Assembly (NCBI RefSeq): GCF_006345805.1
Contig: NC_043016.1
Location: 11,470,001 to 11,534,000, forward strand
DNA: 64,000 nucleotides
Direction: 5' to 3'
From: Octopus sinensis
Taxonomy: Eukaryota
Below the pieces are notes generated by a model that was not told the origin of the DNA, made no database searches, and worked only from the letters and a program-made list of their open reading frames with translations. A program made the position numbers and the translations under genes. This document shows, one piece after another, positions 38,121-64,000 of this stretch. How positions within the stretch are numbered: the first letter of the stretch is position 1; every line of letters starts with the position of its first letter.

Positions 38121-38795
38121 TATATATGTATGTGTCTTGCATTTGTGCTTGTCTCTTCCTCCCACCACTTTGTTTTTTTTTTATTTCATATTTTGCAATT
38201 TCCTGTTTCTCTCTCGTTCTCTCTCTCTCTCTAATTCTTTGTTTCTTATATGTATGTATACATGTTCGTGTTTGTCCCCACCACTGCTTGACAGCCAGTG
38301 TTGCTTTGTTTACATCCTCATGGCTCACTGATTCAGCAAAAAGTGACCAAAAGTGTATGTACTAAGCACAAATAAATAAATATTGGTGGGTGGGGGTTGA
38401 TTTGTTTGACTAAAACCCTTCGGATATTGCCCCAGCATGGCCACAGTCCAATGACTGAAACAACAGCGAGGTAAGCCATAAAAGAAAGACCACCCACACG
38501 CATACACATTCACACCCCACACTCTTTATCTTTTCAACTCTCTTTTTTTTCCAACTGGGGTGTCCGTGTGTCTACTCCACAGCAAGACACTTATACGTAT
38601 GTGCCCCATCTATACCTTGAATCTCTCAACAGGCACAAAGTCACAAGACCTCAACACTACTCCCCGACCTCCTTGTTGAGGGGTTTTGTCTTGCAAGGTA
38701 CTTGGTGATTCTGTCAGTGCTGGTGCCACATAAAAAGCCCTGGTGGTGTTGGTGCCACATAAAAAAGCACTGGTGTTGGTGTCACAAAAAAGCAC

Positions 38796-39846
38796 TGGTG
38801 CCACATAAAAAGCAATGGTACTGGTACCACATAAAAAGCAATGGTACTGGTGCCACATAAAAAGCAATGGTACTGGTGCCACATAAAAAGCAATGGTACT
38901 GGTACCACATAAAAAGCAATGGTACTGGTGCCACATAAAAAGCAATGGTACTGGTACCACATAAAAAGCAATGGTACTGGTGCCACATAAAAAGCAATGG
39001 TACTGGTACCACATAAAAAGCAATGGTACTGGTACCACATAAAAAGCAATGGTACTGGTGCCACATAAAAAGCAATGGTACTGGTGCCACATAAAAAGCA
39101 ATGGTACTGGTGCCACATAAAAAGCAATGGTACTGGTACCACATAAAAAGCAATGGTACTGGTGCCACATAAAAAGCAATGGTACTGGTACCACATAAAA
39201 AGCAATGGTACTGGTGCCACATAAAAAGCAATGGTACTGGTGCCACATAAAAAGCAATGGTACTGGTGCCACATAAAAAGCAATGGTACTGGTACCACAT
39301 AAAAAGCAATGGTACTGGTGCCACATAAAAAGCAATGGTACTGGTACCACATAAAAAGCAATGGTACTGGTGCCACATAAAAAGCAATGGTACTGGTACC
39401 ACATAAAAAGCAATGGTACTGGTGCCACATAAAAAGCAATGGTACTGGTGCCACATAAAAGCAATGGTACTGGTGCCACATAAAAAGCAATGGTACTGGT
39501 GCCACATAAAAAGCAATGGTACTGGTACCACATAAAAAGCAATGGTACTGGTACCACATAAAAAGCAATGGTACTGGTGCCATAAAAAGCAATGGTACTG
39601 GTGCCACATAAAAAGCAATGGTACTGGTACCACATAAAAAGCAATGGTACTGGTGCCACATAAAACAATGGTACTGGTGCCACATAAAAAGCAATGGTAC
39701 TGGTGCCACATAAAAAGCAATGGTACTGGTGCCACATAAAAAGCAATGGTACTGGTACCACATAAAAAGCAATGGTACTGGTACCACATAAAAAGCAATG
39801 GTACTGGTGCCACATAAAAAGCAATGGTACTGGTACCACATAAAAA
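38796..39846. repeat. 26-bp minisatellite, about 40 copies
   Basis: Unit tggt(g/a)ccacataaaaagcaatggtac. Degenerate units flank it and lead into an RTE-type tail at 40050-40228. Confidence 0.95.
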
Positions 39847-41008
39847 GTACTGGTATTGGTGCCATGTATAAAAAGAAATGCACTGGTGCTGGTTCCACAT
39901 TAAAAACTGCTGGTGCCATGTAAAAACACTGGTGGCGTTGGTTCTGCATTAAAAAAAAACACTGGTTCTAGTGCCATGTGAAAAGCACTAGTGCTGGTGT
40001 CACGTTAAAAGTACTGATATTGGTGCTGCTGGTGCCATGGAAAAAGCACCCAGTCCACTCTTTAAAGTGGTTGGTGTTAGGAAGGGCATCCAGCCATAGA
40101 AACCATTCCGGAACAAACAATGGAACTCGATGCAACTCCTGGCCTTGCCAGTTCCTAACAAACTGTCCAACCCATGCCAGCATGGAAAACAGACGTTACA
40201 TCATGTTAATGATGATGATGATGATGATATACATACTCACATACAAACACTGTTTTTATAATACTGCTTGTTTTATTTATTTTTTTTCTTTTGTTATTGG
40301 ATTAATGTAGAATATCAAACAAAATTAATGGAAAACAAGCGATATGGCATATTCTGTATATATTTGCTGTCGTCTCTCCATTATCAACACCAGAGGAGAT
40401 CATTTATCGCATTTTCAAATTTGTAATTGATTGCTCTTGTTTTAAATAAATAATATGGAAAACAGGAAAAATTATAAACCCTGTTAAAATATTTATATGC
40501 CAAAAGATATGCGTATTGCATGGTTTAATAATTCTAAATGTCAAACTTCCCTTTTGAAATATGTGTGTACGCATGTGTTTGTGTATGCGTGTGTGTATGC
40601 GTGTGTTTAAAAATATCGAATTTATTTTGCTAAATATTATTTCAAAGATAAGTTGTTTTATGTAAAAATACACGTGTGTGTGTGTATATATATATATATA
40701 TTGTTACATGTACATATTTGTGTGTGTGTATATGTATAAATTAGGCAATCCTTTGATTCCTTGGCAATGTATGGGTACATATGATTAACATATATTTTAC
40801 ACTCACACACACATATTTATATATACATTGATATACACACTTGCACACACACATATATATGTATATTAGATATGTGTGCATGTAGATAGATAGATAGACA
40901 GACAGATATGTTTTAATTAAATACTGTTTCAGTTGCATACACTGAATTTTTATTCAGCCCTAGGGGCTTTCCGCAATACCAGTGAATATATTTTTCAGTT
41001 TCATATAT

Positions 41009-52197: not shown

Positions 52198-55094
52198 CAT
52201 ACATATACATACTTTAGTTGGGAGAGAAAAAAGTACCCATAAACATTTACAGGACCTCTGAGAATAGTGGGAGGGAGGAATGGAGGAGGGAGAAGGTGTC
52301 TTCAAACCAAGAAACCTGGTCCCCAAATGCTTGCAAACTGTGGACCTCCCCCCCCCTAGAAACACCCTAAATGCCAGAAAGGCATCTGATTGTAGAAATC
52401 ATGCCAAAATGTTGTTTGTACAAATGAGATATGGTCCTACAAATGTGTTATGTAATATATATATTATTTTCACATCCATTTTTCCATGCTAGCATGAGTC
52501 AGATGTGCTACTGAAGTATCGTTTTTACAGATAGGTGCCTTTCCTGCTGCTAACCCATACCTGCTTTTCAAGTAAGAGATGTGTGTGTTTGTGTTAATAA
52601 CAAACGAAAAGTATTCATCACCATAAAGTAATTTAATTTAATTTGATTGGCTCATATAACTACTGAGAGTTTCTCTTTGCAAAAACAAAACTAAGTGAAG
52701 AAGTGCACGTCTTTCAGACAAGGAAATTTCCAGTATAGATTTCAAGTAATCAAACACACACACACACACATTTGCATACATACAGATATATAGATATACA
52801 TATATTTATATAAGTTACCCCTTTCATGTACCATAATTGATCCATACGGTCGGTGCCAAACTCTTGTTTTCTTAGCATCAATTAGATCATTGGCAAACTT
52901 CCTCTGGTTAAAGATATGTGTCTACCACAAATAATTTACACAGAAAAGCCTGCTGCCTCTCGTTTCCTCATTGATACATAAAGAAAGAGGTATAATAAGA
53001 AATAATACCAATAAAAAAACTTCTCTTCCCATATAAGATAAATGAAGTAAAATTCCAATAGCATATTTAAACTAGCAGCTTATAAACATACTGTCCAGCT
53101 TTGTATCCACTCATGCCATTCTCTTTCTAAATACATAACCCATTCTTCTGAAACACCCTTAACCTTCTTGATACCAACTTGTCTGATACCACCTCCGGTT
53201 CTATGTTCAAACTTCCTGTTTTTTAAAGGGATTTAATTTTAAAATTTCCATCAGAATTGCATCTTAATTTATGTTCCAAACACCAGCTTCATAAATACAA
53301 AGTTATTCTAAATGATTCATTATTTTCAAAATCAATTGAAACTAGCACAGTATTTCAGTAAAAATATAGTTACAAAAGGGTTAAATTCTTCCATCCAACC
53401 TTCATCATCATCATTGTTTAACGTCCATTTTCCATTCTAGCATGGGTTGGACGGTTCGACCAGGGTCTGGGAATCCAGGAGGCTGCACCAGGCTCCAGTC
53501 TGATCTGGTAGTGTTTCTACAGCTGGATGCCATTTGAATTTATATTCCAAACACCAATTCAATAAATGACAGTTAGTTCAATAAATTCTTCAGTATTCTG
53601 AAAATTAATTGAAATAAAGGCTTATTTCAATAGAAATATGATAAAAGGATTATTATCCAGATTTTTTTACATCATTCTTCTACTAAACTTCAGCAGTTTG
53701 ACTTTTAATTTATTTAATCAACCCTGAAAGGGTGAAGATCAAACTTGACCTCAACAAGATTTGAACTTTTTTTTTTACTGATGGCCAAACAAATCTGCAA
53801 ACACACAGCTTTAAATAATGGATTCAAATGTTGGTACAAGGTCATCAGTTTTTTGTTGTTGTTTTTTAAGGGAATTAGTAAGTCAGAACCAGTAATACCA
53901 GTACTTGACTGGTACTTCATTTTGTGAACCTTGAAAGAAAGGAAGGCTGAATTAACCTTCACTAGATTTGAATCCAGAACAAACACCACAAGTCATTGTA
54001 CCTGACACCCTGATGACTATACCCATTCACCAACTGTGTGTCATGGCAAATCATTTTAGAACCTCTTCCACAATCTTTTCAGCTGAGATTTTACTGGTAC
54101 TTGGTTGCTTAACCCTTTGGTTACCATATATATACCTGTTGACATACACTGCCTTTCTTTCAACTAATGTCAAAAACAACAAAGGATTTAGTAAAATAAC
54201 TGTTTTTATTAAGCTGGTGTTTGGAACATAAATTAACCCTTTTGTTACCATATTGCTGTATGGGGGAATCTGTACATCCCCATGATTGCCTAAGTGAACT
54301 CTACTAGTTAGTATAAATGAGCATGTGCAGAACAGTCTGGGAAGAGTGTCATATGTGCAGTCATAGTGTATAGGTTGTAGGGGCATTTGAATAGAGATAT
54401 CATGGCATGCTTGTTGAAAATACACTGATGTTACCCAAGAGAAAAGCAAAGGCTGATACAGCTTGGAACCTGTGATGTTGCAACTCATTTCTACAGTTGA
54501 GTGAACTGGAGCAATGTGGAATAAAGTGTCTTGCTCAAGAACACAATACATAGCCCGGTCTGAGAATCAAACTCACTACCTCATGATTGTGAGCCCCATG
54601 CTCTAACCACTGAGCCATGTGCCTTTTGAGAAGATTAAACAAGTTCCCTTGTTGGCTCATTAACCAAGATTTTGCTATTTCTAGCAAGTAGAGTGATGAC
54701 GGAGCAGCACCACTTGCGATTTTGTCGATCGGGTTACTTAGGAAGCTGCAATATATATAGCATGGCAGGTGGCACCGTATTCAATAGCTGCAAATGTAGA
54801 AGAAGAAAAAAACAAAACAAAGGAAGAAAGAAATGAACTATGGTGAACTTTTACTTAAGCTTCAAGTTAATTAATCAAATTAACAAGAGATTAGAAATAA
54901 TCGAGGTGAAATAAGTGCAAGTCATATTGTATGCAATTCATATTTGAGAAAGAAAACTGTGTGTGTGTGTGTGTGTATCTCAGATACACATTCATATATG
55001 TTCTGTGTTCTTATATGACATTAAATACATGCAACATTATATTTATATATATATATATATATATGCGGGAAAGAAGCAACAAGAATGGATAGGT

Positions 55095-55185
55095 TTTTAG
55101 TACAATCGTTTCATACAAGGACAGGCTTTATTAAAAGTTGTAAAAATTACAGCATATAAACGTGTCCCGTACTCATCAGCTAAAA
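55095..55185 (-). ncRNA. Type I hammerhead ribozyme, inverted copy of 55383-55473
   Basis: Exact reverse complement of the + strand motif (tcatcag at 55173-79), in the left arm of the foldback. Confidence 0.85.
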
Positions 55186-55382
55186 TACATGTGAGTTCTC
55201 TAGACATCCTAGTGGTTGAGGCTATACTCATGAAGTAATGTAGATAATTAATAAGACTGTACATCATCTTTAAAGAACTGTAATGAACTTTGGAAATCTG
55301 TTTATGTTTATGTTACTTAATTATCTACATTACTTCATGAGTATAGCCTCAACCACTAGGATGTCTAGAGAACTCACATGTA

Positions 55383-55473
55383 TTTTAGCTGATGAGTACG
55401 GGACACGTTTATATGCTGTAATTTTTACAACTTTTAATAAAGCCTGTCCTTGTATGAAACGATTGTACTAAAA
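55383..55473 (+). ncRNA. Type I hammerhead ribozyme, canonical core
   Basis: ttttag-CTGATGA(55389-95)-stem II gtacgggaca...tgtccttgtat-GAAAC(55456-60)-gatt-GTA(55465-67)-ctaaaa. Stem I is a 6-bp ttttag/ctaaaa helix. Confidence 0.85.
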
Positions 55474-55626
55474 ACCTATCCATTCTTGTTGCTTCTTTCC
55501 CGCTTATAATCACCCCACATTACTGTATTGTTAAAACAGTATAGTTTTTTTTGGTGCATCTAAGTTAGGTACCATATTCAAGTAAATTCATTTAAATTAA
55601 CTTGAATCTTTATTGCTTTATATATA

Positions 55627-55671
<45 letters not shown>

Positions 55672-56034
55672 CATCATCATTAGCGTCCGTTCTCCATGCT
55701 AGCATGGCTTGGACGGTTCAACTGGGGTCTGTGAAGCTGGAAGGCTTCATCAGGCCCAGTCAGATCTGGCAGTATTTCTACGGCTGGATGCCCTTCCTAA
55801 CGCCAACCACTCCGTGAGTGTAGTGGGTGCTTTTTACGTGCCACCCGCACAGGTGTCAGACAGAGCTGGCAAACGCCCATGAACGGATGGTGCTTTTACG
55901 TGTCACCGGCACGGGGGCCAGGCGAGGCTGGCAACGGACACGAACGGATGGTGCTTTTACGTGCCACCAACACGGGGGCCAATGTTGCATGTATTTAATA
56001 TCATCTGAGTAATAATATATGCTCTGTGTGTGTA

Positions 56035-56073
<39 letters not shown>

Positions 56074-56218
56074 GGGTGCATCTTTCAGTTTTGGTCTCTC
56101 GAATCCCATGGCTATTGTAAAGTACAGTGGTCCGAGATTCCACAGAGTAGGATTAAAACTGGAACCATAGTGTATGTGTTTAAATGGTGAAAGATGACTT
56201 CATAAATATAACAATATA

Positions 56219-57213
56219 CAGGGTGTCCCCCAAAAATTGATATCATTTCGTAGAACAGCTAATTCTCACTTAAATTTTAACAAAATGTGTAAAAGCTTAA
56301 CCCTTTCGCTACCGTATTTCTTTTGAGATGCTCTGCGTTTCTTTCAATTGATTTTAAATATTACAAAGAATTTAGTAAAATAACTTAGTTGTCATTAAGT
56401 TAGTGTTAAGAACATAAATTGTGACTAAGATTTGGTGGAAGATTTTAATTCAAAACTTATGAAAACAAAACATTTGTACTACAGACCAAGAGGTGGTTTC
56501 AGCCAGGTTGGTAACGAAAGGGTTAAGAATTGTTTCTCTATTATATATTTTAACCCTTTTGTCACCATATTTCTGCTGAGATGCTCTCTGTTTCTTTCAA
56601 TTAATTTTCAATATAACAAAGAATTTAGTAAAATAACTTAGTTATCATTAAGCTAGTTTTAGGAACATAAATTGTGACTAATGTTTGGTGGAAGATTTTA
56701 ATTCAGAACTTTTGAAAAGAAGACATTTATGCTACAGAGCCAGAGCCAGTTTCAAGCAGGTTGGTAACGAAAGGGTTAAGTTAGGATAGGGCATGCCAGT
56801 GATAATAACAATGTGCTGTTGGAATGGCCACCACATTCACCTGACTTGACACCTTGTGATTTTTTTTTTATCAATGGGGCAATGTGAAAAGATTGTTCTA
56901 TATCCCCCATCTTCCCAGAAGCCTAGAGGAACTCAAGCAGAGAATCACTGAGGTGCTGGAGAATGTTACGCAAGCCATGCTACAGCAAATTTAGCAGAGG
57001 CTGGACTACTGACATGATGTGTGCAAGTTTGTGACATTGGTTATAAAGTCTACGTTCCTCTGAATCTCTTGTTTGAATTTTGAGAAATAAGTCTGTTGTT
57101 GTTCAACATGAAACCTTTTTAATTTCATTTGCCTCAGATGTAGTAACTCAGATATTCACATTTTAAATGATATTTTAAATGATGTCAACTTTTTGGTGGG
57201 TGCAGGACACCCA

Positions 57214-57214
<1 letters not shown>
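56219..57214 (+). mobile_element. Deleted Tc1/mariner element with transposase remnant
   Basis: TA|cagggtgtcc...ggacacccag|TA termini. 56820-57030 encodes WPPHSPDLTPCDFF..GNVK..LEELKQRITE with disablements. Confidence 0.8.
56297..56779 (+). mobile_element. Tandem pair of TTAA|CCC...GGG|TTAA MITEs (piggyBac-like ends)
   Basis: Two ~230-bp units with ttaacccttt/aaagggttaa ends, inserted in the Tc1 element. Related copies at about 6155-6382, 36250-36690, 42385-42612, 53160-53385, 60160-60985. Confidence 0.65.
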
Positions 57215-57250
<36 letters not shown>

Positions 57251-57546
57251 TAGGTGAATGAATTATCCCATGTTTATCGTCAGCATGGAAAATTCGTTTA
57301 ACCGAAACCTGGGTAGCAAATTCACGTCAGAAAACACGGTTGAAGCGACCTGTCAAGGGTAGAAACTCCAGGTTCATGTGTAGAAATTTGTGTGTTGTAT
57401 ATGAATAAATGAAAGAATCGAGTCGAATGAAGATGTTAACAAAAAAACGGGAAGGTTTACGAAAATAAACAAAAGACGAAGGCAGGTGGAGTACAAACAA
57501 ACAGTTGTATTAGTATTGTGCGCTCAGGAATAGAAATAAAACAAGT

Positions 57547-62580: not shown

Positions 62581-63616
62581 TATGGATGACAAAATCTATT
62601 TCGTTTTTCTCCTTAATAAAATGGGAGTGGGAGGGGAAGAAACATTTTTCACAGTTAATTTCAGTGGGGAGTGGTTTAAGAACTCTTCTTGCAACTGTTG
62701 CTGCTTACCATTTTCTCAACCATAAACACAGACACACTCTCAAACCAACCAGTTTTCAATCTTGTTCTCCACAGAACATCAAATACCCCATCCATCCCGC
62801 TGGAACATGAAATTCCATCTTCCACCCACATTTGTATACCCAGCTTCTTTTTTCTTCCTTTGCATCCACTGAGTTACAGATGTTTCAAGTGACTATCAGT
62901 GTCACCCATCTCATAAGTCACCCCCATCTCCCTGTGTGAAGTACATGGCCATGGCCACCACTCCTTCCTTCATGACTAACCCTGAAATAAAGTGTTTACC
63001 AGTCTATCATTTAAAATACAGGCAGAAGCATTTCTGCTCTAATTATCATATATTGAATACACACACACACACACATGTATGTGTGTATGTATATATATAT
63101 ATATATATGCGTAGGAGTGGCTGTGTGGTAAGTAGCTTGTTTACCAACCACATGTTTCCGGGTTCAGTCCCACTGCGTGGCACCTTGGGCAAGTGTCTTC
63201 TACTATAGCCTCGGGCCGACCAAAGCCTTGTGAGTGGATTTGGTAGACGTATATATGTATATATATATGTGCGTGTGTGTGTCTGTGTTTTACCCCCCAA
63301 CATCTCTTGACAACCGATGCTGGTGTGTTTACGTCTCCGTAACTTAGCGGCTCAGCAAAAAGTGACCGATAGAATAAGTACAAGGCTTACAAAGAATAAG
63401 ACCTGGGGTTGATTTGCTCGACTAAAAAAAAAAGGCGGTGCTCCAGCATGGCCGCAGTCAAATGACTGAAACAAAAAGAATAAAAAAATATGTATATATA
63501 TGTGTGTGTGTGTGTGTGTGTATTTTTTATATATATAATGGAATAATACTACTATGAAGCATTGTGTAGGATATACTGTCAATTTTACTGTTTGTGTATA
63601 TATATATATACATATA

Positions 63617-64000
63617 AAAACACCATCCGAGCGTGGCCGTTCGCCAGCCGTCGTCTGGCACCTGTGTCGGTGGCACATAAAAAACACCATCCGAGCGTGG
63701 CCGTCTGCCAGCCTCGTCTGGCACCTGTGTCGGTGGCACATAAAAAACACCATCCGAGCGTGGCCGTCTGCCAGCCTCGTCTGGCACCTGTGTCGGTGGC
63801 ACATAAAAAACACCATCCGAGCGTGGCCGTTTGTCAGCCTCGTCTGGCACTGTGTCGGTGGCACATAAAATCACCCACTACACTCTCGGAGTGGTTGGCG
63901 TTAGGAAGGGCATCCAGCTGTAGAAACACTGCCAGATCTGACTGGCCTGGTGCAGCCTTCGGGCTCCCCAGACCCCAGTTGAACCGTCCCACCCATGCTA
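63617..64000 (+). repeat. RTE 3' UTR with 63-bp tandem repeat (x4), runs off the window
   Basis: cctgtgtcggtggcacataaaaaacaccatccgagcg recurs at 63661, 63724 and 63787, followed by the RTE tail. Confidence 0.9.

Follow-up and report, generated by a model that had tools for sequence, protein, structure and literature searches.

Layout of the insertion at the locus

The window analysed in this study is a 64,000-nucleotide (64 kb) stretch of the Octopus sinensis genome (contig NC_043016.1, positions 11,470,001 to 11,534,000), and positions are counted from its first letter. It holds a 554-bp insert (55065-55618) inside a (TA)n tract, which borders the insert at about 55037-55064 on the left, as read by eye, and at 55619-55671 on the right, in agreement with the earlier note on this DNA. 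Alignment of the two arms of the insert confirmed the reading in that note that 55065-55251 is the exact reverse complement of 55317-55503, with 187/187 bases matching and a spacer of 65 bases between the arms. The match stretched to 192 nt at 99% when the TA tract was included. A chance origin of such a palindrome is excluded, and the two-armed feature is not rare in the genome. The single N gap in the window, of 100 bases, falls outside 53500-57500.

Arm alignment and comparison with family copies showed that the right arm (55317-55503, plus strand) is the 3' UTR or pseudo-LTR of a Penelope-like element (PLE) as far as a fixed site, designated A. The left arm (55065-55251, minus strand) is an inverted, 5'-truncated piece of the element's terminal region, and its outer end is site A as well. 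The spacer (55252-55316, plus strand) is not foreign DNA; in the family copies it is element 3' UTR sequence, and here it belongs to the longer, right arm only. The right arm also continues for 115 bases (55504-55618, plus strand) without a counterpart in the left arm, and this tail lies between site A and a second fixed end, designated B. The two pieces meet head to head at 55251/55252 with 1 base of microhomology. The insert consists of the last 367 bases of the element and an inverted 187-base piece, and it has no ORF. Elsewhere in the window, a 26-bp unit is repeated 42 times with 95% identity in a tandem array at 38794-39889, which is related by eye to a dispersed repeat at 55826-55981 and 63610-63870.

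It had been proposed in the earlier note that each arm carries a canonical hammerhead. Scanning the 64 kb on both strands with a hammerhead descriptor gave two matches, one in each arm. The type I hammerhead of the pseudo-LTR occupies 55383-55473 on the plus strand (core 55389-55395, GAAA 55456-55459, predicted cut after 55467), and its mirror copy occupies 55095-55185 on the minus strand (core start 55179, predicted cut after 55101). The two motifs, the 6-bp stem I and the long stem II were as proposed, but the motif is not fully canonical. Helix III has 2 bp only, with a self-complementary loop, and pair 10.1-11.1 is G-U. The helix III octamer (55459-55466, plus strand) could pair with itself in an 8-bp duplex with two G-U pairs (-5.8 kcal/mol), and it is a perfect palindrome in most relatives. 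An Rfam search of the 64 kb gave no family at the gathering score, and all 24 matches at E<=10 were chance matches of the hairpin type, with no hammerhead among them.

We then compared 12 hammerhead sequences of the element family and its relatives. All had the same core, 89% of the cells were paired, and 7 of the 20 pairs changed on both sides. The covariation was 0.32 compared to 0.22 in shuffled and at most 0.12 in slid controls. Sequences that are related to each other can outscore shuffled ones, and more weight is therefore given to the slid controls and to the types of pair. PLE hammerheads are described as type I ribozymes with an unstable palindromic helix III, which depend on dimers and cleave weakly in vitro (PMC4209133). 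These results suggest that the octopus motif is a PLE hammerhead of this dimer type, with a palindromic helix III.

The element family and its predicted leader

The sequence at 55252-55620 is a repeat with 1393 candidate copies, and among the 40 of these that were scored, 40/40 were full-length at 98-100% identity. This agrees with the recent insertion proposed in the earlier note. A 19-mer of the hammerhead had 1,068 exact matches in the genome, and the reversed control had 0. In other copies, the sequence leads upstream through 1.5 kb of UTR to an ORF. Tandem copies continue downstream to where the same ORF begins, and their period is about 4.6 kb.

The RT ORF sits in other copies and is absent from the window. 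For a model of the RT from copy L085 (pLDDT 89.9), the top 7 Foldseek matches in the PDB were telomerases (E 5e-9 to 6e-8). The model of the C-terminal EN had T4 EndoII and I-TevI, which are GIY-YIG nucleases, as its top matches (prob 0.99, but with weak E values of 0.013-0.04), and alignment showed a GIY-YIG motif with the invariant Y, Y, G, R and H. RT and EN share one frame in copies L089 and L156. The family copies and the fold matches of RT and EN support the proposal that the locus is a Penelope-like insertion which is truncated at its 5' end and includes an inverted terminal piece.

The Hydra clade of PLEs is defined by RWK, a change of DKG to DKT, CxCX5C, CxxC, CxH and the lack of CCHH in the core (PMC8557442). 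In translations and alignment, the element protein has RWK, DKT in place of DKG, a CxCX5C linker, CxxC and CxH near the C-terminus, and no CCHH within the GIY-YIG core. Published Hydra proteins agree with it by eye, and these motifs are the basis for its placement in the clade. The (TA)n target and a hammerhead with a canonical core are present as in the Hydra clade, and the family shows both the partial-tandem pseudo-LTR and the inverted 5'-truncated copy. The 4.6-kb unit is outside the <3 kb given for the clade, due to Asn-rich inserts and the long UTR; that size is a general description and not diagnostic (PMC8557442). Judged by its sequence, the insert is the 3' end of a young 4.6-kb Hydra-clade element together with an inverted 5'-truncated piece.

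Among 39 homologues of the element protein, only two were named, both annotated in Octopus sinensis, with 86% and 68% identity over part of the query. A Pfam search of the element's proteins gave 0 informative matches. A sequence search of the PDB with one element protein gave no match, and a profile search gave one weak match to a retron RT (E 0.002). No source copy was identified because none of the 12 full-length copies has an unbroken ORF, and the assembly may contain indel errors. The ORF of L085:3561-5531 and L089:3026-5116 has two long Asn-rich inserts, before and after the thumb region, which are missing from the non-octopus homologues; similar inserts have been described in rotifer Penelope (PMC3846280).

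Other RT sequences were also observed. Related Hydra-type families at L146:1998-5369, L148:2088-4613, L150:4093-6972 and L151:2049-4928 have long open frames of 842-1,124 aa and young direct or inverted repeats, and several Hydra-type families seem to have been active recently. On the minus strand, L031:1105-2331 holds a distinct frame of 409 aa that is RT-like, has a DKSG motif and probably belongs to another PLE clade. Public databases label pieces of the RT of the clade as ankyrin protein and as kinase (P0013, P0019), which is likely to reflect mis-annotation or gene-model fusion.

The region between the ribozyme and the start codon was then folded for full elements. It spans 215 nt between the cut and the AUG and gave z -6.1, a value that 0/200 shuffles reached. 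A consensus fold of 8 sequences predicted a 12-bp helix between 55480-55491 (plus strand) and the start-codon region, together with a second long-range helix that encloses site B and has its 5' strand at 55562-55573 (plus strand). Both sites A and B were unpaired in this fold. In 11 sequences, 96% of the leader cells pair, and support from covariation is modest because both sides change in only 4 of the 51 pairs and most pairs show no variation. Both end sites are predicted to be part of a conserved folded domain, which pairs with the start codon. The window copy has lost the 3' partners of both helices.

Fixed ends and the origin of the two arms

The census comprised every insertion marked by the exact 19-mer on chromosome C1 (70 matches, 47 insertions). 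This sample was ascertained on the exact hammerhead 19-mer, and other loci were chosen by likeness to the window. The 47 insertions consisted of 31 inverted two-arm, 13 single and 3 direct tandem insertions. Outer ends sit at one of two fixed positions, with site A at 55503 and site B at 55618. In the two-armed insertions that have one end of each kind, the A end lies 36 nt and the B end about 151-158 nt behind the predicted ribozyme cut. When both outer ends of a two-armed C1 insertion were at fixed sites, one was A and the other B in 28 of 29 cases, with 1 A+A and 0 B+B (P=6e-8 vs 50%). The lone A+A case, L126, has an internal tandem, and 2 inverted cases were not classifiable. Among full-length copies with a fixed-end inverted arm, B-ended copies carry an inverted A arm and A-ended copies an inverted B arm. 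The inverted arm's outer end is as fixed and as regularly joined to TA as the other end, and in the element a short TA-rich stretch follows both site A and site B.

The inner ends are variable. In 25 simple two-arm C1 cases, the A arm reaches further in 8, the B arm reaches further in 8, and the starts lie within 20 nt of each other in 9, compared to 0.9 expected by permutation; 6 of these are within 2 nt. The inverted overlap between arms ranges from none to 1,914 nt, and the arms share no sequence in 2 C1 cases, L097 and L098. Inner junctions differ among copies, with overlaps mostly of 0-6 nt, and four have short inserted duplications. The whole hammerhead is present in both arms in 20/25 simple cases, and 0/90 segments start or end within 6 nt of the ribozyme cut. 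A non-LTR retrozyme or MITE-like unit was rejected because the inner junctions differ between copies, with no short unit of fixed length and no array. By extrapolation from C1, there are roughly 300 similar loci among about 700 insertions.

The arms of one insertion differ by 0.5%, compared to 1.7% to other arms (59 comparisons). Among the inverted pairs on C1, 5/26 had no substitution between arms, and 2/26 also had no gap. In the wider set, which is enriched for window-like copies and counts some loci more than once, 28/59 comparisons had no substitution. The homogenisation that had been offered as the alternative to a recent insertion is therefore not needed to account for perfect arms. Close relatives retain sites A and B, at distances of 35-49 and 154-158 nt to the first long run of TA. 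In more distant families, the few copies seen had tails of about 70-95 nt.

Several other features of these copies were observed. A G precedes the TA run, where the element has T, in 22/33 A ends of C1 insertions (L097-L140, L093), and the window copy is without this G. L040:3005-6953 has a 1,975-bp tandem duplication that holds a whole zero-spacer inverted insertion twice, which is either a real duplication or an assembly repeat. L141:190-1990 (G000:C19:19263500 onward) is a retrozyme-like tandem array with a 568-bp period and a hammerhead-like core in each of the four units seen.

The window copy is a 554-bp, doubly 5'-truncated insertion of a young Hydra-clade PLE into (TA)n, and we consider it probable that its symmetry comes from two target-primed cDNAs joined head to head. 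In this mechanism, the two cut target strands would each prime one cDNA on the element RNA, and the TA-rich bases after sites A and B could anneal to the nicked (TA)n end. One cDNA would start at site A and the other at site B, which lies 115 bases beyond it, and repair-type joining would then connect both short products head to head. We infer that one uncleaved RNA served for both arms. The two hammerheads would be passengers, with the pseudo-LTR ribozyme, 36 bases upstream of site A, copied twice. A previous report on the anole PLE PAc described in vitro two internal RT starts that bound a tail, extension of both strands, a predicted dimer and a ribozyme cleavage that was dispensable (PMC11167929). 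The rule of one A and one B end in the octopus family fits twin priming from two internal RT starts. The window copy itself is most likely a dead-on-arrival by-product.

The same element and the same by-product status would also be compatible with an inverted arm made by self-priming, in which one nucleic acid strand folds back on itself. Palindromes at inverted junctions were read in this way in rotifer Penelope (PMC3846280). The excess of equal starts is in its favour, as is the closeness of the two arms of an insertion to each other, with a private shared variant in 5/59 comparisons. However, a fold-back of one cDNA supplies no tail if it was primed at A, and it cannot give an A arm longer than the B arm, so it explains the equal-start class and neither the A-longer insertions nor those with non-overlapping arms. 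Self-priming also does not account for the fixed, TA-joined outer end of the inverted arm, and equal starts are also expected if both cDNAs run off one broken RNA. We regard self-priming as unlikely. An assembly or library fold-back artefact is extremely improbable, although the arms are perfectly identical, the junction 55251/55252 is unbridged in the contigs shown and the assembly may carry indel errors. The asymmetry is typical of the family, as only one arm has the tail and both ends coincide with the fixed family sites within TA tracts. Mirror symmetry does not extend into the flanks, the spacer is an uninterrupted part of the element, and the same rule is obeyed by 28 other C1 insertions with different junctions. 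Contigs of four sequencing runs carry the family, and no listed piece or joint, with TA tracts skipped, bridges 55251/55252 or the empty site. For 54985-55700, 0 reads came from two raw-read runs with the same species label (1.9 Gb each), for which a filter effect, a wrong label or absence are alike possible.

It had further been suggested that the long hairpin competes with ribozyme folding and that the locus could act as either a dsRNA (ADAR/Dicer) substrate or a self-cleaving RNA, depending on the transcription start. Folding prediction agreed with the competition, since the best fold of an RNA through both arms was -341 kcal/mol and that with the hammerhead enforced was -204 kcal/mol. The 187-bp duplex is thus predicted to block the ribozyme in a read-through RNA. 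The hammerhead would be clear of the antisense arm only for transcription starts at 55186-55382, and stem I of the monomer then still had P<=0.03. The mirror hammerhead cannot be the dimer partner because it is antisense on the same RNA. Since the hairpin wins, stem I is improbable and the locus has no same-sense partner, self-cleavage by the window locus alone appears unlikely.

The second part of that suggestion, a locus that switches between the two roles with the transcription start, found no support, and we consider a working host regulatory RNA of this kind very unlikely. The stability of the duplex would suit such a role, and so would the exceptionally high hyper-editing of octopus, with Penelope reported as the heavily edited LINE-like family in lizard (PMC5625713). 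The family is also covered by contigs of one run that was guessed to be RNA and may be DNA. Some EN+ PLEs carry a spliceosomal intron, and one of these contigs is gap-free over 55378-55606 across the predicted cut site; it is not locus-specific. No expression or editing specific to the locus was found in the runs examined. However, the few permissive starts leave stem I improbable, the dimer-type motif requires a partner that the locus lacks, and the locus is one of the roughly 300 alike extrapolated from C1. Rare variants in 173 arms showed no A>G excess that could be a fossil of A-to-I editing (10 on 14,389 A vs 15 T>C on 18,526 T). The window ORFs gave no sign of a host exon, since 0/148 of them (of 195 listed; 15.7-64 kb) matched Pfam, which is a weak test. 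If the locus is transcribed, incidental editing is plausible and would not be a function. Target-primed synthesis of two cDNAs remains our preferred origin of the arms.

Comparison with known systems

The layout of the insertion is already in print, and the end rule, the long tail and the structured leader are new at the level of the family. The origin of the tandem and inverted structures of PLEs has been named as an open question (PMC8557442). The locus itself matters little, as hundreds of broken copies share its published layout. The family could be useful for the study of PLE transposition, with hundreds of near-identical young insertions, well-separated ends, a near-strict rule of one end of each kind and a defined RNA domain that is open to mutation. 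Its perfect dsRNA in an octopus-type genome can also be counted and compared with editing data. We see about an even chance that the family is a natural record of PLE twin priming. A conserved folded leader of about 200 nt, which follows the hammerhead and is closed by the 12-bp helix with the AUG buried in it, would then present two single-stranded U-rich/UAUA sites 115 nt apart, and a dimeric RT-EN would prime one target strand on each to give one A and one B end. Hundreds of long perfect hairpins would thereby have been seeded into a heavily A-to-I-editing genome. In our literature search, which did not extend to Repbase and subscription papers, neither this family nor a 115-nt tail nor an AUG-pairing leader was found described.

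In LINE-1 twin priming, an inverted 5' piece arises from a second priming event, with joining at microhomology. As a rule, L1 inversions have no duplicated sequence, and their second start is variable. In the octopus family, the second start is fixed and the arms usually overlap, which gives rise to the palindrome.

Hydra-1_Obim of Octopus bimaculoides and Penelope-13_HM have RWK, DKT, CxCX5C, CxxC, CxH, a C-terminal GIY-YIG and a (TA)n target in common with the family (PMC8557442). As described for the Hydra clade, a hammerhead with a palindromic helix III lies near the 3' end, and Penelope-13_HM is listed with a 5'-truncated inverted copy and a hammerhead on both strands (PMC8557442). The family is distinct from Hydra-1_Obim in the sequence of the hammerhead and in size. 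It differs from the Hydra clade as described there in its 4.6-kb length, compared to <3 kb, in the Asn-rich inserts, in the 1.5-kb 3' UTR and in a much longer stem II (PMC8557442).

The family also shares with the general PLE insertion unit the pseudo-LTR, the head-to-head inverted 5'-truncated copy, the one-end tail, the microhomology junctions and the Asn-rich ORF inserts (PMC8557442, PMC3846280). Compared to that unit, the arms in the window are so short that only the ribozyme region remains. The tail is present at one end in 28/29 C1 insertions, and its 115 nt is three times the 30-40 bp given for PLEs (PMC8557442). The rule of one A and one B end, which is counted here (28/29), was stated qualitatively for PLEs (PMC8557442, PMC3846280).

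Minimal PLE hammerheads (Cervera and De la Pena 2014, PMC4209133) are likewise type I and dimer-dependent, with an unstable palindromic helix III. The window motif, which is a candidate ribozyme, has a stem I of 6 bp, a much longer stem II and a G-U at 10.1-11.1. Dual min-HHRs about 100-700 bp apart on opposite strands were reported in Schistosoma (PMC4209133).

The anole Poseidon element PAc (Frangieh et al. 2024, PMC11167929) resembles the family in its two RT starts bounding a tail, AT-rich target, extension of both strands and use of uncleaved RNA. Fig. S2 of that report may bear on the one-of-each rule. PAc belongs to another clade, and its RT starts lie 111-118 bp inside the ORF (PMC11167929), whereas the starts in the octopus family are 115 nt apart, both upstream of the ORF, in a leader that is predicted to be structured and to pair with the AUG.
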